Notes under the pieces: generated by a model
The model's database searches: none
Told to the model about the DNA's origin: nothing
Seen by the model: the letters and a program-made list of their open reading frames with translations, nothing else
Source of the DNA: a virus
Virus record (IMG/VR): IMGVR_UViG_3300045988_098930
Length of the DNA stretch: 64,000 nt
Direction: 5' to 3' (one strand)
Program-made: the position numbers and the translations under genes
Part shown: one piece after another, positions 12,101-64,000 of the stretch
Layout: each line of letters starts with the position of its first letter
How positions within the stretch are numbered: position 1 is the first letter of the stretch

Positions 12101-12109
12101 CGGTTGTAA
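6188..12109 (+). CDS. tail tape measure protein
   Basis: 1973 aa. Long Ala/Gln/Lys-rich coiled-coil stretches and hydrophobic segments mid-protein. Peptidoglycan-binding-like repeat GVDGVIGKMT...GLKVDGKVGSKTY near nt 11450-11620. Followed by Dit/Tal-like genes. Confidence 0.85.
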   Translation: MSNYDFQVFTQLVPSGATISELRKQVQDYFDKNAIKVKFSNFDLSGAASGTTTKQINATANALQAIKLSLQEINTARNKIVKAGTENTSNQIQAYNKQIKDSVVSLKELINTYAKLNGGKSVEFRDLTPLLNPTDIQAATDALRSLLQGAGMNGAAVETVLTSFKKGCWDVSEAAAKAADAVQKMHSEMAAKASAATAKTGQSVYAKYNDISAPDIANYTVDTTKLVQSYQAVKQQITDIQTVQSSGAKVSQAQWQLLIDAAQQYEIALKNVKVEQKDATATQKKADKELADLDKLQNKLIQLQATFGEGYFNNQKTIIQRLGLSSADVTDATDALATLRATYAQLEVAISSNNAADKQAAITNLQTAYQGFGASLRNLQTAARELNSSLNAGIQFQRLKSQAQAYFDQYATGIQRNSQLTKEWRELIQKIGNADQWQNSNQAAAALDDLKRRSQAAGVEVTSLNKKLRDMFGDTLYGFAVAQITSVAANAIHQVVTNVVELDKAMTDLQIASGLNRTQVRGLLEDYGQLAQAIGATTLEVAEAADGWLRQGYSMQETSELIKSSMMLSKLGQMNSDDATKALTSSLKGYQLQASSATDVVSKLVAVDMEAAASAGGLATAMSQTATLADQTGISMDRLIGIVATLMDVSQQSGESVGAAVKSMLARLGNIKAGRLIDPETGESLSDVETVLNNIGVKLRTNATDWRDYQDVLDDVAAKWGSLNETQQRAVAVALGQTRRQEQFNILMANYDKVRQFTETAANATGTAERKYLNYMDSVEAKINTLKASWESLSQTVLSSDLIVGGVQFLSQLIQGLDKVVSKLGAVPSVLAAISLVVSKRGKGLFGQEGLFTASLNKNGLSGNFLAQHVQRNFLTNKDISLLHQYNEALSQSIADGNTLADAHTKLTAELTKGSAAFQQYAVQLDGTGDSVEKVTAKGLKLSDVLLNVGNMALNMALGAAISMAIGLIIKRIDQYIRRIELAQQKTQEAIGIWQGANDKLEEQRTKLGDTSDRLEELNKLKAGGNWTEQLEAEKRELELQNGQIRDQIELLKIKAELDRQAAVQALKDEIATTQGATQYAFAWKVASSADAKGYAVSGLAADSGQRQYVTADQNEALAIALARLHEIEASKKESGKLTKQEQADLESIRTTLTDVGLQSNTWATQLTTLGEVDLARPYLDVVSAASDAVELANRIQADTTVLSDTLKQALDSNANLAALAGGLTKTQLLARQNSGAYQALATIAAQYGKTVEDITPILEDLGYLQKEVAGSTEDLKNEQGQLNDIWAAARSAGDDASDTVKNLKVAIGTVQDWRSTKNEVAAAIATINQLTGLNLDVDADGLLDTLDFISAYLSGDIEKFEKYGIAAIKALGVKPDASGLQAALQALITQFGLLSGAAQATAATILSAFESIGAIKWGGLTDSQQAIMDDPNADPRAKAYIAAQRKRVVNDDWFKSTAATSKRYGSSKSGSSKKTTDSKLEAYKAYINELDHLLAMEQITEQEYYKRSLDAFNKYLGDKKKYQDQWWALQEKYYKWWKKQAEDAARDRYEADKKAAEDAYKAEKERIDKLKDANDDLLSAYQDRVNFQKKQLNRAGDERSYDQEVAAANKRIADLKAQIEVLSLDDSANAKAKRLELQEQLDDELLDLDNKMYDRSADVQSDALDDSLDEYSRYIGAQNKLLDEQLRRLEKQHNAILDNLQSTLDSALNNISTMFQQMMAETENMVNQINAMLASIDVSSHAGISQMQQALVDTGYNIGSYGVQKNGVDGVIGKMTVKGLQQFLNDSMGAGLKVDGKVGSKTYAAIQNAVNAGLLNESYLKAFPRKYHTGGVVGQDFNSETAFKELVKKKPDEVDARLRKGEVVLTEDQAIKAAKRLAFSSSDAERLFTIMSQGIGGLFGGDGALKQATKLAQTVANNTTHAPSVSVINNFNGTTDADTVRAIERWSETFKKQIKEEIFRVPINSLARTGRL

Positions 12110-13067: not shown

Positions 13068-16001
13068 ATGCTGTTTAGCTTTGATAAGTTTGACCGCTAT
13101 GAGATACCCGTCCTGACCGTGGCGCACCCCGATTTCACTAAAGTGGGGATTATCAAAGACCCTATCGGGTTAAAACTTGACCTGAATTTGGTATCTACCT
13201 CTAAAGCGTCGTTTGAAGCGTATTCAGTAGATGATACTGGCAATGCCACCTTTTATTATGGTGCGTTGACCAAGTATAATCTCGTGCATATTAGCGGCTT
13301 CGGTTGGTTCGTAATCACCAATGTTGATGAAAGTAATGATGGTATTCATAAGAGCAAGTCGGTGGACTGTGAATCTTACGAGTATACGTTAGGGCGCAAA
13401 GCGGCGAACCTAAGTGCAGGCACATATCGTCTGTATGATCCTGCCAACGCCGCCAGCACTGAGACTTTGCTTGGACATTTTCTGGCGAATTGCCCTCGTT
13501 GGACGATAGGCTATGTGAGCAGTGCGCTGTATAGCCGGTATCGGACCTTTGATATGCCTGATGCGTCTATGTACGGCTTTCTAATGGAAGAAGCGATGGA
13601 CGCTTATGAGTGTGTATTTGTCTTTGACACGGAGAATTTGCAGATCAAGGTCTATGCGCCTGATGATTTGATTAAGGATTCGGGGATTGTATTCCGATAC
13701 ACCTCACTTTTAAAGCATATCTCAATATCTGATTCCGCAGACGATGTGGTAACGGAACTGCAAGTGTATGGCGCAGACGATTTTAGTATTGCTACTGTTA
13801 ATCCGCTTGGCACTGCCAGTATTTACAAGTATGACTATTTTAAAGATGTCATGCCTGCGGCTATGTGGGTCAAGGTTAAGCAATGGCAGGATGATGTTGC
13901 GGCGGCTATGGGGCGTACTTCCGCTTATGGCAATATACTGACCGCTATAAAAAATGAGAATCTAAAGATACTCGGTTATGAAGCGAATAAGTCTGAAGTG
14001 GAACGGTATCGAGCGGCTGGTGAACAGGTCCGCACTGTTAATACGCCGTATACGATGCAGGCCGTTTCGCAGACTGCTGTGGATAATATACGGGCATGGA
14101 TAGATAGCAAAAGCAGCACTGACCTGTTGACAATGGTAACTGCCGCCGATGCTTACCCTCCTATTCCTACGTTTGTGCCTGCCGGTGGCGAGGGTGTTGT
14201 ACCAAGCGAGATACAAGCGTATGCTGATACGATAACAGAAGCAGACCGTAATGTGGCACAGGCAACGGTGAATATTTATGCCTGCGAAAAGTGTATCCAG
14301 TATTGTGATAGTCTCATTGAACAGAGCAAGGCGCAAATTGCCGTCCATCAAGAGCAACGTCAGGCTGCATCTGCGGGGTTGGCTTTATCTAACTACCTGA
14401 CTGCCGCTGAAATAACTGCTTTAGGTGATTACACTTTGGCTGACGTGTATGAGAACACATACATTGTGCCGTTGGACAACGCGACCTATGAGGACACACA
14501 AAATCTGGCCTTTGAACTGCTGGACGGTGCATTAGAGGTGTTGGACCGTGTATCTCAGCCTGCCTTTGAGTTTAGTGTGGATAGCGTCAACTTGATGTTT
14601 GATAAAGAGCATGAAGCATACATCAATAACATTGAACAAAAGGGTTTAGGTTGTCAAGTCCATATTGAGTTTGAGGACGGCAACTGGTACAATCCGGTGT
14701 TGATGGGTATTGGTGTTGAGTATGACCACCCTGATAAATGTTCACTGGTATTTGGTAGCAATTATCACGCTCGAATGAGCGAGGATTTGTATGCTGAGTG
14801 CTTCCAGAACGCTGCTAAAACGTCCTCTACGGTCAGCAGTGCATTGCATAGCTGGCTCAATCCTATGCAGTCGCAGAGTCTCAGTCCTATGCGTGAATTT
14901 ATCGAAGGTACATTGAGTGCGACGGCGAATAAGATTATCAATGCCAGTAATCAGTCTACGGTTATAGACCAGTTTGGTATCTGGGGCCGTAAGGCCACAG
15001 AAGACGGATACAGCCCTAAACAGCTTAAAATTATCAATAACGGTATGTTTATGACTGATGATAATTGGGATACGTGTAAGCTGGCTATTGGCGAGATAGA
15101 GATACCGGGGACGGCTGATACGGCGTATGGGGTGGCGTCCGAATTGCTGGTGGGTAATCTGATATTGGGCGAAGCCATGAAGATTATCAATGCCAATAAT
15201 ACGTTCACCATAGACGAAAACGGTATGAATCTAACTACTTCAGACGGATTAAAGAAGATATATATGGACCCGTCTGATGGGTTTAAGATTCAAGGTAGAG
15301 CTAATACTTCTGCGGAATTTGCGGATAAACTATATCTGGATTCGGAAGGTAATGCTATATTAAAGGACATTACGGCTATTGGTGGTACATTTACAGGAAG
15401 CGTATTGGCTGGTGCTGGTGTAATGGGCGGGTTCTACTCTCAAGACAGTATACATAAAATTCTCGGCAATTTGACCATCGAAGGAGATTTGACCATTAAG
15501 GGCAAATACCCCGCCTCCCCTGTTACTCCTGCGGGAGCTGGCATTCAATCTGGTAGTAATGGATATATAGTAACCGCCCCTCAAGCGAACCAATTTGGTA
15601 CGATGTCTGTTGAAACATTGCGTGTAACTGATGGATCGGGCAATTATTGGAATTTGCTACAAAATGGATCGTGGTCTACTGGCACTGGTGGCGGTGGCAC
15701 AGGTGGATCGGGCAGTGGAGTTACATATAACATTATTCGCTATACGAATCCTAATGCAACCATTTATTTTCATCCTCAAGCTTCACCTACGCCCAGAAAT
15801 GGCGTTATGCAGGTGTATCAATGGTATGTTTATATTGAGATAACAACCAATTCACATGGATCGTGGTATTTGCTTTCGCAAACGTGTACTTATAATAATG
15901 GTCGCGTAACTCCTAATGCCTCTCTATCTAATTTTGGGTGGGTCAACTTAGACCCTACTTTGTCTACCGTAGAAGTGCGAACCAACCAACCGGGAGCGTA
16001 A
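13068..16001 (+). CDS. tail-associated (Tal-like) large structural protein
   Basis: 977 aa, immediately after the Dit-like gene. Gly-rich linker GTGGGGTGGSGSG near the C-terminus. Confidence 0.55.
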   Translation: MLFSFDKFDRYEIPVLTVAHPDFTKVGIIKDPIGLKLDLNLVSTSKASFEAYSVDDTGNATFYYGALTKYNLVHISGFGWFVITNVDESNDGIHKSKSVDCESYEYTLGRKAANLSAGTYRLYDPANAASTETLLGHFLANCPRWTIGYVSSALYSRYRTFDMPDASMYGFLMEEAMDAYECVFVFDTENLQIKVYAPDDLIKDSGIVFRYTSLLKHISISDSADDVVTELQVYGADDFSIATVNPLGTASIYKYDYFKDVMPAAMWVKVKQWQDDVAAAMGRTSAYGNILTAIKNENLKILGYEANKSEVERYRAAGEQVRTVNTPYTMQAVSQTAVDNIRAWIDSKSSTDLLTMVTAADAYPPIPTFVPAGGEGVVPSEIQAYADTITEADRNVAQATVNIYACEKCIQYCDSLIEQSKAQIAVHQEQRQAASAGLALSNYLTAAEITALGDYTLADVYENTYIVPLDNATYEDTQNLAFELLDGALEVLDRVSQPAFEFSVDSVNLMFDKEHEAYINNIEQKGLGCQVHIEFEDGNWYNPVLMGIGVEYDHPDKCSLVFGSNYHARMSEDLYAECFQNAAKTSSTVSSALHSWLNPMQSQSLSPMREFIEGTLSATANKIINASNQSTVIDQFGIWGRKATEDGYSPKQLKIINNGMFMTDDNWDTCKLAIGEIEIPGTADTAYGVASELLVGNLILGEAMKIINANNTFTIDENGMNLTTSDGLKKIYMDPSDGFKIQGRANTSAEFADKLYLDSEGNAILKDITAIGGTFTGSVLAGAGVMGGFYSQDSIHKILGNLTIEGDLTIKGKYPASPVTPAGAGIQSGSNGYIVTAPQANQFGTMSVETLRVTDGSGNYWNLLQNGSWSTGTGGGGTGGSGSGVTYNIIRYTNPNATIYFHPQASPTPRNGVMQVYQWYVYIEITTNSHGSWYLLSQTCTYNNGRVTPNASLSNFGWVNLDPTLSTVEVRTNQPGA

Positions 16002-18266: not shown

Positions 18267-19160
18267 ATGAGTTCTACAACTGAATATGCTGGCTTACTGC
18301 TTGTAGACCCGTTGGGTGCGGATAGCGCCATGTCGGGCAGCTCTTGGGTGGAGTCACAGGCGGGCATAGCGTCCACCAGCAATATGCAAATTATAGATGC
18401 CTTGCTGAAACAGAAGGCTTCTTTTACTGTAAAAACAGCCGACGAATGGAGCGCAGACACCACCACTATTCTTCGTGCAAATGATTTTGGCGTGGTGTCT
18501 GACACAGGTGAAGTGCGGCGTGGCGACGGTATTCACGCATGGGGTGAATTGACTACATTTGACCCCGGTAATGCCAGTGGCAAGGTGGATAAAGTGCTGG
18601 GTGCTGTCGGTCATTTAGTGCAGTTTGCCAATGACGGTGCAATAGCTGATAGCGGCAAAAAGATAGATGATTTTGCCTCTGCAACGCATACGCATGGCAA
18701 TTTGACCAATGATGGTAAACTCGGTTCTGTGGCAGATCAAGTAGCTGTGACTGATACTGGCGGTGCTTTGATCACTAAATCGGCGGCTGAAATGCGGACT
18801 TTGCTGGATGTGCCGCAAAGCGACAGTAAGCAGGATAAGATAACGGTGCAGGGCATTGTGAAGGGTGACGGTGCAGGCGGCGTGTCTGCGGCTCAAAGTG
18901 GTGTAGATTTCGCATTGCCTGCTACGCTCTATACTGCTACATTGACTGCGGCGGGTTGGAACAATAAATCTCAAACTGTAAGTGTTGCTGGTGTGACCGC
19001 TAATAATGTGGTGTTGGTGCAGGCGCAAGCCGATTCCAGTCAGGCGTATCGCGTGGCTAAAGTGATGGCTGATGCTACGCAAGTGGCTGGGCAACTGACA
19101 TTTAGTTGCACCACTACGCCTACTGTCGATTTGACCGTTATGATTATTGTGTTGGGTTAG
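18267..19160 (+). CDS. tail fibre-like protein
   Basis: 297 aa. The C-terminal ~80 aa (TLTAAGW..QTVSVAGVT..LTFSC) are paralogous to the C-terminus of the next ORF. Confidence 0.5.
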   Translation: MSSTTEYAGLLLVDPLGADSAMSGSSWVESQAGIASTSNMQIIDALLKQKASFTVKTADEWSADTTTILRANDFGVVSDTGEVRRGDGIHAWGELTTFDPGNASGKVDKVLGAVGHLVQFANDGAIADSGKKIDDFASATHTHGNLTNDGKLGSVADQVAVTDTGGALITKSAAEMRTLLDVPQSDSKQDKITVQGIVKGDGAGGVSAAQSGVDFALPATLYTATLTAAGWNNKSQTVSVAGVTANNVVLVQAQADSSQAYRVAKVMADATQVAGQLTFSCTTTPTVDLTVMIIVLG

Positions 19161-19170
19161 GGGTGATTGT

Positions 19171-19680
19171 ATGGCTATTGTAAATATAGGGGCTGGTAGC
19201 GGCTCTGAATATGGTGTATACGTTGGTACAGTTGCCCCTACTGACCCCAGCACTACTGTGTGGATTGTGCCAGATGACGAACCGACTACGATTGATGATA
19301 TAGCGGCACAGGTAGTGATTAAGCCCACGACTAATACTACATTATCAGGCGTGCTTAAAGGCGCAAATGGTAAGATGGCGCAAGCAGTGGCGGGAACAGA
19401 TTATCAAACGCCTTTAACTGCGGGTACGGATTACGCACAGCCGAGTATAACTGTAACGGTTACGTTGTCTGCAACGGGTTGGACTGATAATACGCAAACA
19501 GTGGCGGTGACTGGTGTGACTACTACTAATGCTATAATGATCGCTCCTGCTCCCGTATCTTTTTTAGCGTATTGTGATTCTCAGGTACGGGCAACAGCGC
19601 AGGCGGCTAATGCGCTTACATTCGCTTGCGAAGATGCGCCGACTGAGAATTTGACTGTGAATATTTTGATTATGAGGTGA
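19171..19680 (+). CDS. tail fibre-like protein (paralogous C-terminal domain)
   Basis: ATG 19171 after AGGGGTGA. C-terminus TLSATGW..QTVAVTGVT..LTFAC matches the upstream fibre. Confidence 0.5.
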   Translation: MAIVNIGAGSGSEYGVYVGTVAPTDPSTTVWIVPDDEPTTIDDIAAQVVIKPTTNTTLSGVLKGANGKMAQAVAGTDYQTPLTAGTDYAQPSITVTVTLSATGWTDNTQTVAVTGVTTTNAIMIAPAPVSFLAYCDSQVRATAQAANALTFACEDAPTENLTVNILIMR

Positions 19681-19687
19681 TTGAACT

Positions 19688-19978
19688 ATGCTTTTTAATG
19701 CAAGTGATAGTGGGCCGCGCAATGTTTCTTCCCTCCCCGCCAGCGGCGCGGCACTGACGGCAAATACTATATATAATGCATCTTCTCCTGTTGGTACATA
19801 TGTATTCACCCCTCCCGCATCCGGCTGGGCGCATGGCACATTTACTACGGGTAGTAGTGTATCGGTGTCATTTAGTGGCACATTCATTGGCGCGGCCCCG
19901 GCAATAGAGGCAAACAAGACCTATGAATTTGATGTATACAATGGCGTGTGGGCAGTACAGGAGGTTGTGAGCGCATGA
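19688..19978 (+). CDS. hypothetical structural protein
   Basis: 96-aa ORF in the array. Confidence 0.45.
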   Translation: MLFNASDSGPRNVSSLPASGAALTANTIYNASSPVGTYVFTPPASGWAHGTFTTGSSVSVSFSGTFIGAAPAIEANKTYEFDVYNGVWAVQEVVSA

Positions 19979-20343
19979 TACCTATGCTACGAAGGAGGCT
20001 GATGAGCAACATGGCAAAGGCGAAAAATATAGCAACGGGAACGATAGATGCGGGAAATTCCCATTTGACAACAATATCAATATCTGCTCAAACAGGCTTT
20101 AGACCCGACCATGTTGCGGTGTTTATAGCGTCAGAGAGGGCGGAATCAGCATTACAATTTCATGTTTTGAGTACATACGATGGCAACGTATTATGTTTTG
20201 ACATGGATACATGGTATATGAACGCATCATCCGTTCAGTTTACTGTGAACGACAGCGGGTTCACGATTGCAAACGTTAAGGTCGGCTCGGATAATCAAGT
20301 TTACTTTACCGGCACTTACCGCTATGTAGCATGGCAAGAATAA
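19975..20343 (+). CDS. hypothetical fibre-module protein with MIPMLRRRLM N-terminus
   Basis: ATGA overlap with the upstream stop, in frame with track ORF 19948..20343. Confidence 0.5.
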   Translation: MIPMLRRRLMSNMAKAKNIATGTIDAGNSHLTTISISAQTGFRPDHVAVFIASERAESALQFHVLSTYDGNVLCFDMDTWYMNASSVQFTVNDSGFTIANVKVGSDNQVYFTGTYRYVAWQE

Positions 20344-20417
20344 AAAGGAGCATACTATGTGTAAAATAATTCTATCGGGGGGGGCAGCCTCCGTAAAATA
20401 AAAAGCGCCTACGCGCT

Positions 20418-21311
20418 ATGATACCATTGCAGTTTGCCTTACGGCGCAGAATGATGATGGCAGGGGGAGGCTTACTGCCAAGTGGATTTACCCTCCTTGC
20501 GTGGATAAAAGGCACAGGTACACAGTACATTGATACCGGGTTTGTGGTTAATAAGTCCGATAACTATGTGTTAGAAATAGACGGGTTATTTCCTTCGCAG
20601 GCGCAGGTGTATCAAGGTTGCAATGGCTATATGCAGTTTTTCACCAGTAGTAAATATGGTATAAGTGGCGATAGCTCTGTTGCAGTTGGTAATCGTAATA
20701 CCGTGCGCGTAGAGTACGCTAATCAAACTGAAAAACTCTTTGTAGACGGAGCACAAATAGAGAGTAAACTGTGGTCAGCATACAATGGTTCTAATGTAAA
20801 ACTTGCATTATTACGCATGGGCGATGCCAACAACGGGTGGTACAATGGGGCAGCAGCTCAAGGTACGATATACGGTTATAAGGTGTGGAAGAACAATATC
20901 CTTGTTTCGGAATGTGTACCTTGTATACGTAATAGCGATGGTGCTGCCGGAGTGTATGATGTTATCCGAGAACAGTTTATTACTCCTGTCAACGGTGTGT
21001 TTTTGACTCCTGATGGCGTCACTTATACGGTTACTACGAACTATATACCGGTTGCCGGACTTGTAACAGTAAACGGTTTAGATCTTCCGGTTAGTAACTC
21101 AACCACAATTTACGCCGTTCCTTCCGGTGTGACAATCATTCTCCGTGCTCGTAGCGAGAGCACAAGCCAACTGGATATAACCGTGGATGACGTGGTTGTA
21201 GCAAGCGCATCACCGTTTCAGAGTGTCAGCTATACGTATGCCGTTACTAAAAACTGCACTGTACACGTATCCAATTCGGCAGCCGGCCAACGCTCATGGA
21301 TAACAACGTAA
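20418..21311 (+). CDS. hypothetical fibre-module protein with MIPLQFALRRRMMM N-terminus
   Basis: 297-aa ORF. The N-terminal Arg-rich motif is shared with 19975 and 22466. Confidence 0.5.
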   Translation: MIPLQFALRRRMMMAGGGLLPSGFTLLAWIKGTGTQYIDTGFVVNKSDNYVLEIDGLFPSQAQVYQGCNGYMQFFTSSKYGISGDSSVAVGNRNTVRVEYANQTEKLFVDGAQIESKLWSAYNGSNVKLALLRMGDANNGWYNGAAAQGTIYGYKVWKNNILVSECVPCIRNSDGAAGVYDVIREQFITPVNGVFLTPDGVTYTVTTNYIPVAGLVTVNGLDLPVSNSTTIYAVPSGVTIILRARSESTSQLDITVDDVVVASASPFQSVSYTYAVTKNCTVHVSNSAAGQRSWITT

Positions 21312-26995: not shown

Positions 26996-28501
26996 TTATA
27001 AGTCGTATTTCCAAAAGATGCGGATTTCGTCTGTAAATATGCGAACCTCTTTTATCAGCATTGCGGCGACTTCATGGCGCTGTGCAATATCCATATAGGG
27101 CCACATATCCAGCGTGTCATACAGTTGTCGGGTGTTTTCGGGTGACGGTCTTTCCAGTATATGTTTTTGCAACGCAACCTCTATTTCATGGCGTTGTGTT
27201 TCTAATGCAGCGATTTTATCGTTGAGATAACCTATGACCGTTGCAGAGCCTTGAGCGATTGCGTTCACCAAGTTGTCAATCTGTTCATTGATTTTATTGA
27301 TTTGTATTTTGTATTGTTGCTCCTTGATGTCGCACTCGGCAATCTGTTGTGCTTGTAGGTCGGAATGTCTTTGGATGTGTTGCATGATTTGGGTCTCAAC
27401 CGCTTCTTCCACTTGTGCAATAGATACACGCGCATTATCATCACAAGTTCCGTAATTGGCATGTCCAGAGCATCGAAACTTTGGTACACCCTTTTTCATT
27501 ACATCCGCTTTCATAGCTTTGCCGCAATAGCCGCATTTAATCAAACCAGTCAGCCATGAGTGTTTGCCTTGTCCTCCATTATATACCTGTGTGTTATTAC
27601 TTAAACGGTTCTGACACAACAAGAATGTTTGCGCATCAACTAACCCTTCATGTAATCCGATAGATAATGTGAGGCTTTTTAGCTGGTCGAACTTACGCCG
27701 TTTGTGATCCCACTGCCCATACGTTACACAACCATTCACGCCTGCAAAGGCTTCAATCGGGTTGGTGATGTTGATGCCTGTTAAGCGATAGTAGTTATAT
27801 ATGTCTGCATTAGCCTTTACATATACGGGGTTGGACATGATGCGGCTAAGTTTGCAGGAGTCCCATGCTGCACCGCCCGGAGATGGCACACGCCGCTGAT
27901 TGAGTTGCCTCGCCAATGCTCCTAATGATGTGCTTGTGTATGCGTATGCGTCAAAGATACCGCGCAATATCTGCGTCGTTTCTGGGTCGCATACCAGTGA
28001 ACTCACAGACTTGCCTTGTAGGGCGACCTTGGTTTTGATAAACCCATAAGGTGCTGTGGAGTCGTATGCTCCGTTTGCCGAGCGCATATAATAATTATCC
28101 CTGACACGTAACTGTATAGTCTCACGTTCAAGTTGGGCAAAGACCATTATAATGCTCAACATGGCGTTGCCTATTGGGGTAGAGGTGTCAAATTTCTCGC
28201 GTGTAGACTGGAACTCTACATTGTGTTGTTTGAATACCTCTATCATTTCTGCAAAGTCTAATAGCGACCTACTAAGCCTGTCCAGTTTATAGACCGTTAC
28301 CTTATTGATTACGCCGGAATGAATGTCTTTCATCATTTCCTGAAACTGTGGACGATTTGTATTCTTTCCGCTAAATCCTTTGTCAATGTACACTTTTGTG
28401 GGTACATCTATACCCAATTCTTGTTTACAGAGTTCAATTTGGGTTTCGATAGATAAACTGTCCTTTTTATCTAACGATTGTCTGGCGTATACCGCGTTCA
28501 T
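26996..28501 (-). CDS. large serine recombinase (integrase)
   Basis: N-terminal resolvase domain AVYARQSLDKKDSLSIETQ (Ser nucleophile). Recombinase and Zn-ribbon region CGYCGK...C...C. C-terminal coiled coil. 501 aa. Confidence 0.9.
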   Translation of the reverse strand: MNAVYARQSLDKKDSLSIETQIELCKQELGIDVPTKVYIDKGFSGKNTNRPQFQEMMKDIHSGVINKVTVYKLDRLSRSLLDFAEMIEVFKQHNVEFQSTREKFDTSTPIGNAMLSIIMVFAQLERETIQLRVRDNYYMRSANGAYDSTAPYGFIKTKVALQGKSVSSLVCDPETTQILRGIFDAYAYTSTSLGALARQLNQRRVPSPGGAAWDSCKLSRIMSNPVYVKANADIYNYYRLTGINITNPIEAFAGVNGCVTYGQWDHKRRKFDQLKSLTLSIGLHEGLVDAQTFLLCQNRLSNNTQVYNGGQGKHSWLTGLIKCGYCGKAMKADVMKKGVPKFRCSGHANYGTCDDNARVSIAQVEEAVETQIMQHIQRHSDLQAQQIAECDIKEQQYKIQINKINEQIDNLVNAIAQGSATVIGYLNDKIAALETQRHEIEVALQKHILERPSPENTRQLYDTLDMWPYMDIAQRHEVAAMLIKEVRIFTDEIRIFWKYDL

Positions 28502-48421: not shown

Positions 48422-48547
48422 CGTGTGAGATTTATTGCACACAGATATGGTCTGTTGAACATTCCGATACCCATACTTTTGGTACAATGTGTCTGAGTCC
48501 TTTAGTATTTGACGCGCCGTTTGCAAATCCTTCTGCAATTCATTCAT
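48422..48547 (-). CDS. small hypothetical protein (41 aa)
   Basis: ATGA overlap with the upstream stop. MNELQKDLQTARQILK... Confidence 0.3.
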
Positions 48548-48999: not shown

Positions 49000-49083
49000 T
49001 GGTGCTCAAGGCGGGATTTGAACCCGCAAGGCTTTTGCCGACAGATTTTAAGTCTGTTGTGTATGCCGTTCCACCACTTGAGC
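49000..49083 (-). tRNA. tRNA-Leu (anticodon UAA)
   Basis: Manual cloverleaf. Acceptor GCTCAAG/CTTGAGC. Anticodon arm ACAGA-CTTAAAA-TCTGT. Long variable arm GGC-AAAA-GCC. T arm CGGG-TTCAAAT-CCCG. Encoded CCA. Confidence 0.85.
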
Positions 49084-49164
49084 GTGATGCCCGTCTTTCC
49101 GAGCTGTCACAAGTCTGTTCCCTGTTGTCAACTCTATTAAGGGGAGTTCAATGCGGTTGCCCGC

Positions 49165-49240
49165 TGGCTGAGGTGGCAGGATTTGAACCTGCGTGTGTCA
49201 GAGTCAAAGTCTGATGCCTTTACCACTTGGCGACACCTCA
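49165..49240 (-). tRNA. tRNA-Gln (anticodon UUG)
   Basis: Manual cloverleaf, 76 nt. Acceptor TGAGGTG/CACCTCA (U1-A72). Anticodon arm TCAGA-CTTTGAC-TCTGA. T arm GCAGG-TTCAAAT-CCTGC. Encoded CCA. Confidence 0.85.
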
Positions 49241-50364
49241 ATGCAATGGGCGGTTTGCACCGCCCTAAATTGTTGTTTGATATTGCATATACTACGATAT
49301 GCGTGAAAGCGGTGAGCATGGCCTGCCCACGAATCAACCGACACCCGAATGTCGTCTAAACTCATTCGACCCGCCGCTAACCATCGAGCGAACTTCTTTA
49401 ACTTGCGCCGCATAGTTGTCACTGATAGCGGACTGAGTTTTCGCCACACACCGCCATGTTTGTTTAAAACATACAACCCCTTTAAGAAAGTCACACCGTT
49501 ACTCAGTTTGGCAATCTGCGTCTTTTTAGGGTTTAACTTAATTCCCAACTTATCACATTCGGCTTGCAACTGATATAAACACAAAGTTAAATACTGTTTA
49601 CTTGGATGAATCATATACCCATCATCCATATATCGCGCATAATATTTGATGCCCAACTTTTCTTTCACAAAATGGTCGATACGATTAGGGAGTGCTAAGG
49701 CACATATCTGTGAGACTTGACTGCCCAGCCCTAATCCTTGATCACCAAATTGTTTGATAAAATATTCGGTTTGCCGAAGCACATCTTGATCTGTGATACA
49801 ACGGCGTAACTCCTGAAATACCGCCGCATGATTGGCAGAGTCAAAGTATTTAGAAAAGTCAAACGTGAGTACATAACCTTCATTTGTACCATACTTATTA
49901 TAGTATTGATGTAAATGTTTGACAAGGCGTTGCATCGAAAAGTCAATTCCCTTGCCTTTGAGAGATGCCCCGTTATCGTAAATGAAGGTACTACTAAGAA
50001 GTGGTATCAAAGCATAATCGCACAGACAACGTTGAATTACCCTTTCCGAAATATGAACACTGCGGATATGTCGCGGTTTGCCGCGTTCAATCAAATCAAA
50101 TTCTACAAACCCCTTACTGCGATATGTTCCGTTTAATAGGCGTTGCCTATCGCAGTAGATATTGTCCAGCGCATTAGCCTTATACTCCTGCACGCTGCAC
50201 TTCCAGCCTACGCCCTTGCGCGACGCCTTCCATGCTTTGTATAAGTGCTCCATTGAGAAAATCTCATTAAAGTTACCGACAGCCGCATTGCGCTTGGCGC
50301 GTTGTGCTTCTCGGTATTGTTTGCGGCGTTGATACCGCAGTTCATGCCGTTCTTCACTTGTCAT
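49204..50364 (-). CDS. DGR reverse transcriptase
   Basis: ATG 50364 after GAAGGA. RT motifs LTFDFSKYFDS, LGLGSQVSQ, ARYMDDGYM. Lies next to the TR. The last 12 codons and the stop lie inside tRNA-Gln. Confidence 0.9.
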   Translation of the reverse strand: MTSEERHELRYQRRKQYREAQRAKRNAAVGNFNEIFSMEHLYKAWKASRKGVGWKCSVQEYKANALDNIYCDRQRLLNGTYRSKGFVEFDLIERGKPRHIRSVHISERVIQRCLCDYALIPLLSSTFIYDNGASLKGKGIDFSMQRLVKHLHQYYNKYGTNEGYVLTFDFSKYFDSANHAAVFQELRRCITDQDVLRQTEYFIKQFGDQGLGLGSQVSQICALALPNRIDHFVKEKLGIKYYARYMDDGYMIHPSKQYLTLCLYQLQAECDKLGIKLNPKKTQIAKLSNGVTFLKGLYVLNKHGGVWRKLSPLSVTTMRRKLKKFARWLAAGRMSLDDIRVSVDSWAGHAHRFHAYRSICNIKQQFRAVQTAHCIEVSPSGKGIRL

Positions 50365-50571
50365 AAAAATCCTTCGTATGGCTATAACGTGTTGCAGCCA
50401 CATAGTTGCGACCATGAAAACAGAGAGAGCACGTATCATCTGTCCATGCAAGCAGCGTCCGGTCGCTTTCATCAAAGAATCACATTTACCCTTACAGGAA
50501 GGTCTTAGGCTCCTTCTATTTGTTGTACTGAGTTCGCTTCTAAAAGAAGTTAATACGTCGGACATGAAATG

Positions 50572-50699
50572 GAATCCCAGCGCCACGCCATTCGAGTTAT
50601 TGGCATTGTCATTGTTCGCGCTCCCAGATGTGTTAACCATACAGAAGTTGTTGGAGTTATTGACATTCGCGGAGCGTAGCCAAACATTACAAGCGGAGC
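50572..50699 (-). repeat. DGR template repeat (TR)
   Basis: 128 bp collinear with 51255-51382. AAY-rich (reads ..NVWLRSANVNNSNNFCMVNTSGSANNDNANNSNGVALGF). Differences from the VR fall at TR adenines. Confidence 0.85.
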
Positions 50700-50730
50700 A
50701 AATGCTATACAGCCTAAAACCTAAACACAA

Positions 50731-51153
50731 TTATGAGGAAGTCTTGCCAGCTTTTAGTTTAAGGAAACGCGCTTTGTCGGTTTTCTTAACACCTTGAATC
50801 AATTCCATTTCCTTGTGGATCATAGCTATCCATGCTTCTTCGGCGTTTAAAGAGATAATGCAATCTTCGTAAGCTAAAGTAATTTCATCATATAGATTTT
50901 GCAGGCATTGATACGCCTTGTTCAAATAACGGGTGCGCTCATCAAGCTGGGCTTGGTTGTTTACATATACACCATTAGCGGCACGCACATAATTGCAGCA
51001 ATGCGCCGCTAATTCGTTGATTCTGGCCCCGCCATAAAATGTGCGACGTTTAGGAAATTTTAACGCCTTAGCACGGCTATACCGCCACAAATCCATGGCA
51101 GTATCTAAAAACTGTACATTACTTTTCTTACGTTTGCTTGCATATACCGACAT
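50731..51153 (-). CDS. avd: DGR accessory variability determinant (Avd)-like protein
   Basis: 140 aa, basic and helical. Canonical position between the target and the TR. Confidence 0.65.
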   Translation of the reverse strand: MSVYASKRKKSNVQFLDTAMDLWRYSRAKALKFPKRRTFYGGARINELAAHCCNYVRAANGVYVNNQAQLDERTRYLNKAYQCLQNLYDEITLAYEDCIISLNAEEAWIAMIHKEMELIQGVKKTDKARFLKLKAGKTSS

Positions 51154-51187
51154 TGTTTGTTCCTTTCATATTTTCGCCTGCCGTTGC

Positions 51188-51237
51188 TTCCCCTAACGGG
51201 GAAGTCAACGGGGGATTAAGGCGCTTTGCAAGCGCCT
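51188..51237 (-). promoter_or_regulatory. two GC-rich hairpins immediately downstream of the VR (candidate DGR target-recognition structure)
   Basis: AGGCGCTT-GCA-AAGCGCCT (51219-51237) and TTCCCC-GTTA-GGGGAA (51188-51203) on the - strand. Absent after the TR. Confidence 0.45.
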
Positions 51238-51245
51238 ATTTCCGA

Positions 51246-52160
51246 TTAAATACAGAAGCCCAGCGCCACGCCATACGAGTTACTGGCAATGTCACGGTTC
51301 GCGCTCCCAGATGCGTTAACCACACAGAAGGAGTAGGAGTTAACGACATACGCGGACCGTAGCCAAACATAACAAGCGGAGCCGTTCTGTGTAAAGATGT
51401 TGCTACTCCGAGTGTACTTGACACCCTCTTGCGTGCCGGAGTAAGAAGTTACACCCAGAATTTCATACTCAGACCCCGGCCACAGCCTATCTGATGTAGG
51501 ATTTGCGCCCTTATTATTTACCTTATTAACAGCCTTAATGCCGTTCGTTGCCTGTAATTCTGCGGGCAACAAAGTGAGATATGAAGGTACAGTCGTAGAA
51601 CGCATCCGAGACGCACCCCAGCCACCCTCATTTGTGTTGCTACTATTCATCTGAGCGCTGGCAGAAAAGCACTGCTTCATAAAGAAGGTTGCCGCAGCCT
51701 TACCGCCTGTGCCGCCGCCATCAGTACGAGCATCGGTACGTACACCGCATAATTCAACCGCAACAGTTTCAGAACCAAACGTCACATTCTTGGCCGCTTT
51801 AAGTGTAAACCCATTGAAATTCGTTATCAATTCACCGCTATTACATATAGAAATGATTTGTTCCCACGTCAACGCCGAGAACGGACTATTGGTACTGAAT
51901 AACTGCCACACACCCGCCACTCCGATATAGGCGTTGCAATACACCCATGTCGAACCGTTATACTGCATTGTGAGTCCGGGAGTCAGAGTTAAATTTTGTT
52001 TACCGGCCACATTAAGCTGATAGCCGCCACCATCTACTGTATGCACCCACAAATCGCCATTAGCGGGTTCAGCGGGCTTGACATAAGAAAAATAAATCGT
52101 TTCAGGCGTAGTAGCAGTTAATACTACTACCTGACCATCAACGACTGCGCTGGGGAGCAA
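51246..52160 (-). CDS. DGR variable (target) protein
   Basis: The ORF as sequenced starts at TTG 52160 without an SD. The same frame is open upstream through a G12 tract. The SD+ATG at 52230 would be in frame with 11 or 14 G. The C-terminus holds the VR (..YVWLRSAYVVNSYSFCVVNASGSANRDIASNSYGVALGFCI). Confidence 0.8.
   Translation of the reverse strand: MLPSAVVDGQVVVLTATTPETIYFSYVKPAEPANGDLWVHTVDGGGYQLNVAGKQNLTLTPGLTMQYNGSTWVYCNAYIGVAGVWQLFSTNSPFSALTWEQIISICNSGELITNFNGFTLKAAKNVTFGSETVAVELCGVRTDARTDGGGTGGKAAATFFMKQCFSASAQMNSSNTNEGGWGASRMRSTTVPSYLTLLPAELQATNGIKAVNKVNNKGANPTSDRLWPGSEYEILGVTSYSGTQEGVKYTRSSNIFTQNGSACYVWLRSAYVVNSYSFCVVNASGSANRDIASNSYGVALGFCI
51255..51382 (-). repeat. DGR variable region (VR)
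   Basis: The 3' end of the target ORF. 15 mismatches to the TR at TR-adenine positions plus one synonymous C>G. Shares the A-free element GGCGTGGCGCTGGG at the 3' end. Confidence 0.85.
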
Positions 52161-52186
52161 AGAAGCTATCTGTATATCAAAGGATA

Positions 52187-52198
52187 CCCCCCCCCCCC
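52187..52198 (-). repeat. poly-G(12) homopolymer in the 5' end of the DGR target gene
   Basis: 12 consecutive C on the + strand, counted directly. Confidence 0.95.
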
Positions 52199-52238
52199 GA
52201 TTTTTTGTTACATACCATATTAAATAACATGAAATTTT

Positions 52239-52673
52239 TTAATCCTCCTTTATTTGTTCGAACGACACAGTGACCGGCATACGCCAACCGGTCTGACTGG
52301 CGTTTAATATGGCCGTTATGAAATTCTTGGCTAACATGTCTTGGACCGCAGGCTGATTAAGCTCCGCTCTAATCATAGCCGAAAAGGCCGCTTGATTATT
52401 TTCAATCATTGTGGCTATTTCCTTAGACACAGTATCTTTGATAGCATTAGTTGCCAACCACCGCAAATACGGTTGCGCCCGATATGAACTCGAAGAACAT
52501 GGTTCACCTCTTTCATTTACCGAGCTGGCGACAACCGCCCGCACAGCTTTGCGCACTAATTCAGTTTTATCGCCCAACGCATCAGCGATTGCTATGCACA
52601 CAGCGTCGCTTACATTCTTTTCTATCAGAGCCTTGTCTATTTCAATGCCCATACTCAGTTTTTCAGTTGCCAT
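52239..52673 (-). CDS. hypothetical helical protein
   Basis: 144-aa ORF directly upstream of the DGR target. Its 3' end contains the AAGGAGG used by ATG 52230. Confidence 0.5.
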   Translation of the reverse strand: MATEKLSMGIEIDKALIEKNVSDAVCIAIADALGDKTELVRKAVRAVVASSVNERGEPCSSSSYRAQPYLRWLATNAIKDTVSKEIATMIENNQAAFSAMIRAELNQPAVQDMLAKNFITAILNASQTGWRMPVTVSFEQIKED

Positions 52674-52689
52674 TCCTCATCACCTCCTT

Positions 52690-53466
52690 TTAAAACGAAT
52701 AATCGTTTATCCATGACTCTATCCACAAACGCGCATCCTCCTTCTCCATGAAAAAATGAATACCGGTAGAACATTCGTTCCATCTGTTTGTATCATAATC
52801 GTCAACTTGAAGTGTTTGCCCAATTGTATACATAAAAGCATAATTATATATACTATGGATCGGCACTGCATCGGGAAGCTGTTGACCATTAGACAAGGTG
52901 TAAGCATCTAATACTATCGCCTTATTGCATCGGCATTTTCGAGTAGTTGCGCTACTTCTGTACGCATCGGCTGGAATTTCAAGTGTGACCAATACGGGGC
53001 ATATATGCAGATCTGGATCATAGCACCATGCCCCCTTGTACCCAATAAAGCTGCCGTTCATGGGACATTGAGGACGATAATAAAGCGTCTTATCATTAAC
53101 AATCGCAGTCTCTAAGCCACAGCAAAGAATAAATTTGCAAGTATACAAATTCGCATGGCACAAATTTACTTCTTGCAAATCACAGTGTACAAAGCTAACA
53201 CACCTCGCTAATGTACATCCTGTGAACACCGCCTTAGTGAAATTACACGCTACAAAATCACACTTGATAAAAACACAATCAATGAATTGCACATAACGCA
53301 AATCTTGATGGGAGGCGTTTATCTTGTTTATCACACAATTCCGCAATACTAATTGCTGGCCTTGACCGTTCTGCTCTATCCACAACCGATGCTGGCGCAC
53401 ACACTCTTCAAATTGAGCGACATCTATTACGACCATATATTCTCTCCTTACGCTACTAAAGTACAC
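52690..53466 (-). CDS. pentapeptide-repeat protein with C-terminal GIHFF-motif domain
   Basis: Runs such as NCVINKINASHQDLRYVQFIDCVFIKCDFVACNFTKAVFTGCTLARC fit A(D/N)LXX repeats. C-terminal ...CSTGIHFFMEKEDA. Confidence 0.65.
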   Translation of the reverse strand: MYFSSVRREYMVVIDVAQFEECVRQHRLWIEQNGQGQQLVLRNCVINKINASHQDLRYVQFIDCVFIKCDFVACNFTKAVFTGCTLARCVSFVHCDLQEVNLCHANLYTCKFILCCGLETAIVNDKTLYYRPQCPMNGSFIGYKGAWCYDPDLHICPVLVTLEIPADAYRSSATTRKCRCNKAIVLDAYTLSNGQQLPDAVPIHSIYNYAFMYTIGQTLQVDDYDTNRWNECSTGIHFFMEKEDARLWIESWINDYSF

Positions 53467-54743
53467 ACCTTATCCTTAACGTGCAAAGCAAGCGGAACGA
53501 GTTCGCCAATCATTTCCTTTATATAATCATTATCACCAGCTTCAGCATTAAGATTTAAGGTTTTAGAATTAAGATAAGTTTCCAATTCGGATTTGGTCGT
53601 ACACAAGAACTTTTTAAGCCCACCCATAGTATATGACGGCATAACAGGTTCGGCAAGGGGTGTCGGCTCTTGTTGCGCCAGTTCCCTTTCCAGCCGCTTG
53701 TTCTCGGCTCGAAGATTAGTCAATTCCCGCATTTGCTCAGAAGTCAAAGCATTGTCCTCCAACGCTTCTGTTTGCTCTAACAACTCTTGAATATACCCGT
53801 TAGCCTCATTGATCTTCTGTTGCGAATCCTGCAACTTGCACTTCAGATTATAATTTTCGCTGTTAGCCTTCTGGTAGTTCTCGTAAGCCCGTCTACAATC
53901 TTCTTGTAGTTTATCTATTTTGGCAACCAGTTCAGGATCACCCTTCTGTTTAAGCTCAGTAATACGGTCATCCAGTTCGTTATTCTTCGCCACAATCAAA
54001 TTAAGCCTATTGGCAAGCGACGCATTAGTACCTTGCCATTGCTTTTCCTTTTGCTCCATTTCAACTTGCTGTTGCCGTATCTGACACAAATATTTGTCAG
54101 TGAGCTTGGCTGTGATACGCTCCTTCACCGGCAGAGCATTATAAAGCTGCTCCTGCTCGTCCTCTGATAGCTTGCCTATGATACGTGAAGCGACGCTGGC
54201 AGATACATTGCCGGAATCCAACAGCTCTTGCCAATCTGGGATAAGATCGGACAAAGATTTGAATTGCCTATACGAAGCATAATCAATACCGGCAGCTTTG
54301 CAAGCCTCCTCTGCTGTCACAGGTTCACCCGAAGTTGTTACATTGTCACAACTTTTATGTTTACCACCTCCATCTACCTTATATATACGCCGCAGCTCAT
54401 CCACCCGATGTACTGCTTTCAGCTCACTGCCGCCTATATTGCCTCTCTGCCGCACATTGGTTTCTATCAAATCCTTGATGACCCAATCTTCAGCACACCT
54501 ACCATCGTGGTTGTCATAGTGCCTAACCTCACCAAGTATGGTGACAATTCCCAATTCCCTGCAAGCCCGCACTCGCTGGTGGCCGGACACAATAATTAAG
54601 TCCTGCGTAACCACAATAGGTTCAATAACCCCACTGGTTTTGATGCTTTCCTTAAATTCTTCCCATTTCTGTCCACTCATTTCATCAAAGAAATACTCGT
54701 TTTGCGGATGCGCCTGCAATTTGCTGACTTGTAATGCCTGCAT
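53448..54743 (-). CDS. ParB-like nuclease-domain protein with long coiled coil
   Basis: N-terminal IEPIVVTQDLIIVSGHQRVRACRELG (ParB/Srx GxxR motif). C-terminal heptad-rich region. 431 aa. Confidence 0.6.
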   Translation of the reverse strand: MQALQVSKLQAHPQNEYFFDEMSGQKWEEFKESIKTSGVIEPIVVTQDLIIVSGHQRVRACRELGIVTILGEVRHYDNHDGRCAEDWVIKDLIETNVRQRGNIGGSELKAVHRVDELRRIYKVDGGGKHKSCDNVTTSGEPVTAEEACKAAGIDYASYRQFKSLSDLIPDWQELLDSGNVSASVASRIIGKLSEDEQEQLYNALPVKERITAKLTDKYLCQIRQQQVEMEQKEKQWQGTNASLANRLNLIVAKNNELDDRITELKQKGDPELVAKIDKLQEDCRRAYENYQKANSENYNLKCKLQDSQQKINEANGYIQELLEQTEALEDNALTSEQMRELTNLRAENKRLERELAQQEPTPLAEPVMPSYTMGGLKKFLCTTKSELETYLNSKTLNLNAEAGDNDYIKEMIGELVPLALHVKDKVCTLVA

Positions 54744-56420: not shown

Positions 56421-56600
56421 TTAACATACACGCCACAGACCGCCGTTGCATCTCTCAATGACGACAGTGCCGTACTCAGACAGTTCAGGGGTATCCTCAT
56501 TTTCAACCCAAGCGAAAGCATAAAACTGTTTGGCGTCGTATTCTGCCAGCGTGTCGCCATCCTCATCTGTGGCCAATAGATAGGTCGTGAAACTTGACAC
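56421..56600 (-). CDS. orphan 59-aa ORF abutting the right end of TnpB element 1
   Basis: Protein-like frame (..YLLATDEDGDTLAEYDAKQFYAFAWVENEDTPELSEYG..). It opens directly after a TGA. The only start is a GTG fused to GAGGA with no spacer. A different frame from track ORF 56399..56635. Confidence 0.35.
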   Translation of the reverse strand: MSSFTTYLLATDEDGDTLAEYDAKQFYAFAWVENEDTPELSEYGTVVIERCNGGLWRVC

Positions 56601-56760
56601 TCCTCACAGCTAAAGCCGGAGGATTCTCGGTTCAACCACCACCGCCTGCATCTGCGAGGTCTTACACGGTGTCCCCAAGCGTATAGGTTCGGGCATGTCC
56701 CGCCCTACCGTATATATTAGCTACGCCAGCAGGCGCAACCCTTCGTTCAAAATGTTCTTC
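56585..56760 (-). ncRNA. candidate omega (right-end) guide RNA of TnpB-1; boundaries approximate
   Basis: The region overlapping and following the tnpB 3' end shares blocks with the equivalent region of TnpB-2 (GTAAGACCTC, GGCAGGATGAGCCGAA vs GGCGGGACATGCCCGAA). Established TnpB biology places the omega RNA here. Confidence 0.35.
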
Positions 56761-58005
56761 GCGGCGTTTATATCCCGGTCGTGGACAGCACCGCACTCCG
56801 GGCACGTCCAGATGCGCACGGACAGGTCTTTCGTGCCTGACCACTGTGCGCCGCAGCAGGAACAAGTTTGGCTGGAGGGGTAGAAGCGGTCTATCGTGAC
56901 CACGGTTTTCCCATACCATTTGGCCTTGTACTGCAACTGTCTGCGGAACTCGCCCCACCCGGCGTCGGAGATGGGCTTCGCCAAACGGTGGTTTTGTACC
57001 ATGTTCTTCGGAGCCAAGTCCTCAATGCAGATGACGCCGTTGTCACGGATAAGCTGGGTGGACAGTTTGTGCGCTGCGTCCTGCCGCTGGTTGGCAATAT
57101 GCTCGTGAAGCCGTGCTACCTGCAATCTGGCCTTTTCCCAGCGGTTACTCCCCTTTGATTTTCGGGAGAGTTGCCGTTGGAGACGCGCCAGCTTCTTTTC
57201 AGACTTCGCAAGGTACTTGTGATTCGGATACTCTACACCATCAGAGGTAATTGCAAATGCTTTCAAACCCATGTCAATACCGACAACCGCCCCTGTAGAT
57301 GGCAACGGCTCCATATCAACATCTGTACAGCACAGGGCTACAAAATATTTTCCGCTTGGGGTCTGGCTGACGGTTGCGGACAAAATACGCCCCTCTACAG
57401 GTTTGCTGATCCGGCATTTTACCTTTCCCAGCTTGGGGAGCTGTACAGCACCTTCCAATACTTTGATATTTGCGCCCATGCACCTGCTCTTATAGCTTTG
57501 TCGATGGTTTCGTTTGCTTTTGAATTTTGGGTATCCGGGTTTCTCGCCCTTTTTGACCCGCCGAAAGAAGTTCTGATAGGCTGTATCCAAATCCCGTAGA
57601 GAAGATTGCAGGGCAGTTGCGTCAACTTCCCGTAGCCAGATGGTTTTCTCCTGTTTCTTCAGAGATGTCAGGTCTTTGTCTTGCATGAATCGTGTGGGAG
57701 ATTTTTCTGTTTCCCTGTATGCTTCTATTCGCTGCGCAAGATAGTGATTCCATACAAAACGACAACATCCAAATGTCCGGTGTATCTGTTGTGCTTGTGC
57801 GATATTAGGATAGATACGGAATTTGTAGCTATATTCCATTTCAGAACCTCACACATTTTTCTGGTGCTCTATGTACTGCTTAATGGCTGACAATAGCGCA
57901 CCGCCAACAGCAGATACACAAAAACGGTGTGGCTTATATCCCCATAGTTAAAGCAAGGGGCTTTACGCCACTTATGATAAAAACACCGGCTATTTGCCAG
58001 TGTTA
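56603..58005 (-). mobile_element. IS200/IS605-family tnpB-only (IS1341-like) element 1; ends approximate
   Basis: TnpB ORF plus about 120 nt at the 3' end and about 165 nt at the 5' end. GC visibly higher than the flanks. No tnpA. Confidence 0.35.
56721..57839 (-). CDS. tnpB: TnpB RNA-guided endonuclease (IS605 OrfB family), copy 1
   Basis: 372 aa. N-terminal [25 protein letters not shown]. RuvC residues in [24 protein letters not shown]. Zn finger CSCCG..CPECG. Confidence 0.85.
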
Positions 58006-63802: not shown

Positions 63803-64000
63803 GTTGCAGCCGTACTAATTTACCTGCGTCAGTTCGAAAACGTTATCGCCCTTCTTGGGGGCTTCTCTGCGGAACTGAGCACAGTCTGGGTTTGTACAGA
63901 CCCAGCTCTTCCTTTTTTTTTCATTTTGAAACATCCTTCTTCCGCTTTTCATAGCAAGCTGGGCAAAGCAACGCACCGTCATCAAGTAGCATCCGCGTCC

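Follow-up and report, generated by a model that had tools for sequence, protein, structure and literature searches.

A length-variable poly-G tract as a candidate translational switch on a retroelement-diversified tail gene in a gut phage lineage

In the 64,000-nucleotide (nt) stretch of viral DNA catalogued as IMG/VR record IMGVR_UViG_3300045988_098930 (the window, meaning the whole stretch at its full length), a run of 12 G stands between the only start codon that carries a Shine-Dalgarno (SD) sequence and the body of a gene diversified by a diversity-generating retroelement (DGR), and it leaves the two in different reading frames. The question raised by this locus is whether the run is an error of assembly, tolerated damage, a site of recoding or a switch. 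Comparison with close relatives leads us to consider it probable that the G run is a hypermutable contingency tract which switches translation of a DGR-diversified tail protein on and off.

All elements of the locus lie on the minus strand. The SD sequence AAGGAGG (52250-52244) is situated 13 nt 5' of the start codon ATG (52230-52228), within the last codons of an upstream open reading frame (ORF) of 144 amino acids (aa) with no assigned function (52239-52673, stop TAA 52241-52239), and the G12 tract follows at 52198-52187. In the G12 state, translation from this ATG gives MLFNMVCNKKSGGGGIL, a stub of 17 codons closed by TGA (52179-52177). The long frame of the target gene runs open through the tract (..KNRGGGVSFDIQIASLLPS..) into a body of 312 codons (51246-52186, from TCC 52184, the S of VSFD, to the stop at 51246-51248). 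On the 5' side of the tract this frame contains neither ATG nor GTG; the first canonical start it offers is TTG 52160, without an SD (preceding sequence TTGATATACAGATAGCTTCT), from which an ORF of 304 aa opens. SD sites are otherwise common in the window, where 21 of the 38 ATG-start ORFs have a strong one and 8 a weak one. Rebuilding the tract with 10 to 14 G yields a protein of 327 aa at G11 and 328 aa at G14, and stubs of 17-21 aa at G10, G12 and G13. Reading and translating the minus strand thus reproduced what an earlier note had claimed from the letters of this DNA, namely the positions of SD, ATG and tract, the early stop of the ATG frame, the restriction of the long frame to an SD-less TTG, and the joining of SD and ATG to the target ORF by the loss of one G or the gain of two.

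No other homopolymer in the 64 kb exceeds 9 nt. Among G/C runs, the next in length are one of 8 and three of 6, and by arithmetic from base composition a G or C run of at least 12 is expected about 0.002 times in the window, which argues against a chance feature. Contingency loci carry a homopolymer or short repeat of about seven or more units inside the frame near its 5' end; here, G12 occupies codons 11-15 of the frame opened by ATG 52230. A scan for promoters and terminators near the tract returned nothing relevant.

The assignment of ATG 52230 as the real start rests on homologues at 39-82% identity, which share the same layout: a short N-terminal peptide (MIFNAVIK, MIFNMVY or MGIISCFP), three to six Gly, then (A)SLDVVTA..LPSAVVDGQ. 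In more distant homologues, too, the gene begins at the corresponding ATG. The native protein is thus the in-frame reading MLFNMVCNKKSGGGVSFDIQ.., with the Gly run as a conserved protein feature. Six other lineages write this run in mixed GGC, GGT and GGA codons (e.g., GGT GGC GGC GGT or GGC GGT GGA GGT GGC GGC), with never more than five consecutive G, so the homopolymer is specific to the clade of the window. The closest outgroup (P0001, 82% aa identity) uses the same ATG and reads GGA GCC GCC GCG GGC GGC. Within the window, only 13.5% of the codons for Gly are GGG, and all seven of the remaining runs of at least three Gly are mixed-codon. The homopolymer encoding is therefore derived, and unusual for the genome in which it occurs.

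Relatives were gathered by pattern scans of IMG/VR and metagenome contigs, a protein-guided IMG/VR scan, and searches for exact matches to the proteins of both flanking genes. The set comprises 26 distinct contigs spanning both flanks at 91-100% identity to the window, drawn from IMG/VR, ENA (SPAdes and MEGAHIT assemblies), JGI and Logan, with different samples and assemblers represented. The upstream 144-aa protein is matched exactly on 21 contigs and showed no similarity to the genes 5' of the target in distant relatives. All 26 contigs (26/26) keep the identical AAGGAGG, the same ATG and a G tract, which disposes of the alternative, raised in the earlier note, that related genomes would lack the tract and start the gene elsewhere. 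Tract length differs widely among them: G11 (eight contigs) and G12 (nine) predominate, G10, G13 and G14 are found in two contigs each, and G8, G9 and G15 in one each. The tract is in frame in 11 of the 26 (42%), and all three frames are occupied. As in contingency loci, repeat number thus varies between close genomes and shifts the frame; a single in-frame length is contradicted at the assembly level. The tract also has sequence variants, since one G12 contig (L038) reads GGGAGGGGGGGG and L012 and L046 have G8 and G9 followed by C. Two of the G11 contigs, L028 and L030, share a variable repeat (VR) and are probably one sample counted twice. One additional contig, L016, combines G14 with a neighbouring deletion.

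Strains that are otherwise identical differ at the tract. The window and L027 (ERZ917485, run SRR413762, 100% identical to the window), both G12, have 0 single-nucleotide polymorphisms (SNPs) over 3.4 kb and an identical VR when compared with L029 (JGI 3300058134), which is G14. Likewise, L040 (G11) and L044 (G12) show 0 SNPs and an identical VR, and L015 (G10) and L016 (G14) are 99.6% identical. The tract therefore changes faster than point substitutions accumulate and faster than the VR turns over. Among the 11 aligned loci that cover the tract, in about 80 kb of alignments at 95% identity or above, L005 alone agrees with the window at the tract (G12) and the other 10 do not. Indels at other sites are scarce and fall for the most part between genes or within the VR, and L006 has the same T8 and T9 runs as the window. 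The span of 8-15 rules out a consensus error of one unit as the source, and together with the variety of samples and assemblers, the zero-SNP pairs and the rarity of other indels it outweighs the assembly error that the earlier note had named as the trivial alternative.

The T9 run at 63913-63921 (A9 on the minus strand) was also tried as a control homopolymer and set aside as uninformative. The run begins right behind the stop codon TGA of a minus-strand ORF rich in Cys (..CPACYEKRKKDVSK and stop). Only one further contig was found, L025, a mosaic and distant relative that has T11 (L025 10092-10129) and only about 160 nt in common with the window there; L006 has no indel at this run.

On the 3' side of the tract, the ORF of 312 codons is intact in every relative that covers it, with one exception, a frameshift inside the VR of a 2.4x contig that is most likely an assembly effect of VR heterogeneity. 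Over the 268 codons between tract and VR, 19 sequences (10 of them out of frame, or OFF) contain no stops, and the mean ratio of nonsynonymous to synonymous substitution rates (dN/dS) is 0.12, with 0.16 for OFF-OFF pairs and 0.10 for pairs of in-frame (ON) sequences. Pseudogene decay was rejected on this evidence. The coding sequence 3' of the repeat is thus kept intact, as it is in contingency loci, and because it is also under purifying selection the OFF states would be transient and evolutionarily short-lived, which in a comparison of sequences appears as the signature of a reversible switch and not of decay. With lengths from G8 to G15 and identical strains that differ, the intact ORF supports at the comparative-genomic level the phase-variable switch that the earlier note had proposed.

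Frameshifts inside the VR occur in some low-coverage assemblies; L005, for instance, reads ..VWLRSAVFPTAASVW.., and P0018 continues into the following gene. Heterogeneity of the VR within a sample has probably produced these as assembly artefacts, which could be mistaken for broken targets.

The proposed mechanism starts from the Gly linker, which this clade writes as GGG GGG GGG G. We infer that slipped-strand mispairing at replication gains or loses G's in the tract. Lengths of 8, 11 and 14 would link the SD and ATG to the 312-codon body and yield a protein of 326-328 aa (ON), and any other length would stop translation after 17-21 codons and leave the body with only the SD-less TTG (OFF). 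Switching would be frequent and reversible within one population, so that phage populations would hold mixtures of ON and OFF genomes, the latter presumably devoid of the target protein. The same gene is also diversified at its 3' end by the DGR, and the arrangement may be adaptive as bet-hedging on a host-recognition protein.

Several points weigh against a contingency switch. Illumina chemistry and de Bruijn assemblers are known to handle long poly-G poorly, three contigs (L033-L035) end in or at the tract, and the identical-strain pairs could represent the same reads resolved differently by two assemblers. If every phage had one true in-frame length and the observed lengths were homopolymer miscalls, pairs differing solely at the tract are what assembler ambiguity would look like, and several of the contigs are indeed of low coverage (2.4x, 4.2x). 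A pure sequencing or assembly artefact is nevertheless very unlikely, given that the lengths are not scattered by one unit about a single value, that contigs at about 12x and 23x coverage are included, that the independent assemblies L028 and L030 agree on G11, and that sequence variants of the tract exist while indels elsewhere are rare. The frame counts raise a different doubt. The in-frame share is indistinguishable from the 1/3 expected without frame selection (p = 0.22) and the commonest state, G12, is OFF; these counts do not show that ON is favoured, nor that switching, as opposed to tolerance, is the selected trait. Both features would be explained by a real mutational hotspot without a switch, drifting neutrally in a gene that is dispensable or unselected in the prophage or phage-plasmid state, with OFF as tolerated damage. 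Since the phage looks temperate or plasmid-like (serine integrase, ParB_N protein), most metagenomic copies may replicate without using the tail genes, and L002/L015 and L016 carry additional lesions beside the tract. Neutral drift is unlikely, however, when set against the downstream ORF: its integrity in all 19 sequences checked and its low dN/dS, OFF pairs included, imply that lineages are ON long enough for selection to act. Furthermore, synonymous changes have not broken up the tract over a nucleotide divergence of at least 7%, its homopolymer form is derived, the Gly run being written in mixed codons in all other lineages, and a second tract is found in a comparable position.

Some protein may also be made in the OFF states, if slippage takes place at the level of RNA or ribosome or if translation restarts at TTG 52160, and such leakiness too would tell against a strict switch. 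In its full form, this explanation holds that out-of-frame genomes still make the protein, by -1 ribosomal slippage on G GGG GGG, by RNA-polymerase slippage or by re-initiation at the TTG, and that tract length tunes the level or the N-terminus of the product. The run does contain a formal X XXY YYZ heptamer on which all tRNA-Gly re-pairings are perfect, the commonest state requires exactly a -1 shift, and the stub of the G10/G13 frame ends at a TAG 5 nt before TTG 52160. However, no stimulatory structure is present at the usual spacing of 5-9 nt, and a structured frameshift stimulator was set aside because the RNA folds at both tracts are no better than shuffles (z = -1.34 for the region of the main tract, +0.65 for the second). 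Relatives occur in all three frames, with no single recoding arrangement conserved; of the features of programmed -1 frameshifting, the locus therefore has the heptamer and lacks both a significant downstream structure and conserved frames. The TTG is SD-less in an SD-using genome, and a product begun there would have neither the Gly linker nor the conserved peptide at the N-terminus, and would also miss the first beta-strand of the structural model. Recoding as the purpose of the tract is highly improbable on these grounds; leaky expression is possible but is not the organising principle.

The gene placed under this candidate contingency switch is a genuine DGR target. Its 3' end contains the VR (51255-51382), followed on the same minus strand by an avd-like ORF of 140 aa (50731-51153) in the position of a DGR accessory protein, the template repeat (TR, 50572-50699), and, immediately 3' of the TR, the DGR reverse transcriptase (RT, 49204-50565; PF00078 RVT_1, E = 4e-16; 453 aa as called in relatives, L037-L046). 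The avd-like ORF thus lies between target and TR, and the TR between the avd-like and RT genes. TR and VR form a direct repeat of 128 nt with 16 mismatches, 15 of which fall at the 33 TR adenines. Independent relatives, OFF-state ones included, each have a VR of their own in a gene whose remainder is >97% conserved, and the DGR is therefore active in the lineage. Adenine-biased TR/VR mismatches, an RT beside the TR, a C-terminal VR in a lectin-like target and natural diversification, four of the features by which DGRs are recognised, are thus present. The 140-aa avd-like ORF has no Pfam match at E ≤ 0.01; a gene is found at the same position in distant relatives, and an identical protein is recorded in 210 blocks of the metagenome collection. 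The single non-adenine mismatch (VR 51357/TR 50674, minus strand, TR C to VR G, CGCTCC vs CGGTCC) is an ordinary substitution in the strain of the window, as most relatives carry the TR-like C there.

Structurally, the target protein matches DUF6273 at its C-terminus (residues 190-326). An AlphaFold2 model built on 24 homologues (predicted local distance difference test, pLDDT, 85.5; predicted template modelling score, pTM, 0.84) finds fold matches in BFVD to predicted phage tail-collar-fibre, DUF6273 and receptor-binding proteins (best E, 6e-13). A fold search of the PDB gave weak matches only (T. ramosa IgA peptidase, E = 6e-3; C-type lectins, E > 1). The protein belongs to the tail-fibre module and is built of an N-terminal peptide, a poly-Gly linker, a beta-rich domain and a C-terminal DUF6273 / C-type-lectin-like domain that contains the VR.

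In distant relatives, the target homologue directly follows the tape-measure, Dit and tail-fibre-like genes and is itself followed by a small ORF and the RT; in the window, the DGR cassette lies about 36 kb from the tail module (tape measure 6188-12109, minor tail protein 13068-16001). The cassette has apparently been relocated in the phage of the window. The relatives compared for cassette position were L007, L008, L010 and L036, and the upstream gene of L036 ends ..LTVNILIVG, like the window ORF at 19147-19680. In its present location, the window cassette (49204-52230) adjoins ParB_N and pentapeptide/DUF5758 genes. Directly downstream of the RT, tRNA-Leu(TAA) and tRNA-Gln(TTG) genes are encoded (49000-49240, minus strand), and the final ~36 nt of the RT ORF fall within the tRNA-Gln call (49165-49240). 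Just past these tRNA genes, about 575 nt are inserted in L002 (IMGVR 3300045988_098747; 5232-5806) at the point that corresponds to window position 48446/48447.

A second poly-G module is located on the plus strand at 20357-20417. It comprises an SD, an ATG at 20357 and a 14-aa mini-ORF, MCKIILSGGAASVK, which contains a G8 tract (20377-20384), the only other G/C run of at least 7 nt in the window. In the G8 state the mini-ORF ends at TAA (20399-20401), and a small hairpin with variable loop bases (20404-20417) abuts the next start, ATG 20418. This ATG has no SD and opens a 297-aa ORF with a weak ConA-like lectin match (20418-21311), whose N-terminus, MIPLQFALRRRM, is conserved and whose body is exchanged between relatives. 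On the 5' side, the module is preceded by a gene ending ..YRYVAWQE. The region is present in contigs L017-L024 and L050-L059, and in 19 contigs the tract is 8 nt long in eight, 9 in seven, 10 in three and 11 in one. Tract length moves the end of the mini-ORF: its stop lies 16 nt 5' of ATG 20418 at G8/G11 and 21 nt 5' at G7/G10, and at G9 or G12 its TGA overlaps the next ATG as ATGA. One variant of the mini-ORF lacks exactly one codon (MKIILS) and keeps the frame. A promoter scan near this tract gave only weak 9/12 promoter-like matches, on the non-coding strand. The second tract may possibly act through phase-variable translational coupling, which we offer as a hypothesis. That another tract varies as well makes it more credible that poly-G instability is a genuine trait of the phage lineage.

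The junction of about 130 nt that carries the second tract is conserved, and the gene bodies on both sides of it are swapped between phages (window 19975-21311; L050-L059). Downstream, the slot is filled by one of three protein types with the N-terminus MIPLQFALRRRM in common: ConA-like (297 aa), DUF6273 (232 or 217 aa) or a third kind. The region looks like a cassette system for tail or receptor-binding proteins. The gene 5' of the junction has a similar start, MIPMLRRRLM.

The phage itself is siphovirus-like, comes from the gut, has a genome of about 105 kb and furnishes its genes with SD sites. Its DNA polymerase is closest to that of a Brevibacillus phage, and it encodes its own Pol III alpha-type replicase, a large serine recombinase (integrase, 26996-28501) and a ParB_N protein (53448-54743). 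It appears to be temperate or plasmid-like. Contigs L003, L004, L006, L026, L027 and L029 cluster at 98-111 kb with no flanking host DNA seen, and scans of 185,579 GTDB species genomes by tract pattern and by DNA polymerase gave no prophage copy; the phage may be an extrachromosomal phage-plasmid. A megablast of positions 51000-53500 against GenBank phages gave no match. Elsewhere in the window, a transposase gene (56721-57839, minus strand; phrog_506, E = 1e-144) occupies a segment of about 1.4 kb (~56500-57930) that is replaced by about 125 nt in L006, which looks like an insertion sequence (IS) polymorphism within the phage.

Among known systems, the nearest is that of the Campylobacter Fletchervirus phages, whose poly-G tracts of 7-11 G are reported to underlie phase-variable receptor-binding proteins (Sorensen et al. 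2021, Cell Rep 35:109214, as cited in PMC10579305 and PMC12633550). As far as those citing articles describe it, the two share a phage-encoded G homopolymer of similar length (7-11 there, 8-15 here) in a host-recognition gene, and frame changes that yield sub-populations with and without the protein, a situation that the metagenome assemblies suggest here. Unlike the Fletchervirus case as so cited, the present one involves unrelated proteins, a different phage and host group, and a switched gene that is also a DGR target. Bacterial contingency loci of Campylobacter, Neisseria and Haemophilus have poly-G/C tracts in the 5' coding part of genes for surface structures (PMC4965091, PMC5084427). 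Our locus resembles them in having a homopolymer a few codons past the start, an intact ORF downstream and an environment-facing product, with slipped-strand ON/OFF switching the likely counterpart; it differs in residing in a virus genome with its own Pol III alpha-type replicase, and its slippage rate would depend on the polymerase and on repair. In T-even and other coliphages, homopolymers have been put forward as contingency loci (Gomez, Barrick & Waters 2025 preprint, PMC12633550), and the concept of phage homopolymers giving reversible frameshift variants as bet-hedging is common to both. However, the T-even runs are short (at least 6 nt), affect all gene classes and are under-represented in tail-fibre genes (PMC12633550), whereas the present tract is a long G run in a tail-fibre-module gene.

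The retroelement likewise has familiar counterparts. Bordetella phage BPP-1 (mtd-avd-TR-brt) and gut-phage DGRs (Benler 2021, PMC8008677) have the same order of a target with a C-terminal lectin-domain VR, a small accessory gene, TR and RT, and the same adenine-specific variation. The poly-G tracts reported in BPP-1 lie in a methylase gene and not in the DGR target (PMC12633550). The window cassette stands apart from these in the homopolymer on its target gene; it also lies far from the tail module, whereas in relatives the cassette adjoins tail-fibre genes. Full-text literature searches found no description of a homopolymer switch in a DGR target. The earlier note's suggestion that the arrangement was new thus holds as far as those searches go, with the qualification that poly-G phase variation of phage receptor-binding genes is already known, as reported in PMC10579305 and PMC12633550.

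A broader model is possible, and is offered tentatively: two coupled layers of variation would act on one host-recognition gene, with the poly-G gating translation stochastically and the DGR rewriting the ligand-binding tip. VR variants could build up unseen in OFF genomes and be exposed on a slip back into frame, and the second poly-G, in its leader mini-ORF, would set translational coupling to an exchangeable lectin-like tail gene.

The locus has consequences for annotation and for phage biology alike. Gene callers truncate or mis-start the target in most assemblies; in OFF contigs they report a protein of 304 aa that begins at the TTG. The gene will be mis-annotated when DGR targets are surveyed, and assemblies break at its tract. 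The phage concerned is common in human gut metagenomes, as judged from the 210 blocks in which its avd-like protein is listed. Of the ways in which mutation is targeted to host-interaction genes, DGRs and homopolymer contingency loci are the two that are best known, and work on the one has so far been separate from work on the other. Their presence on one gene raises the question of whether gating shields the phage from the cost of non-functional DGR variants, and whether the arrangement serves as a hedge against phase variation of the host receptor or is merely tolerated.

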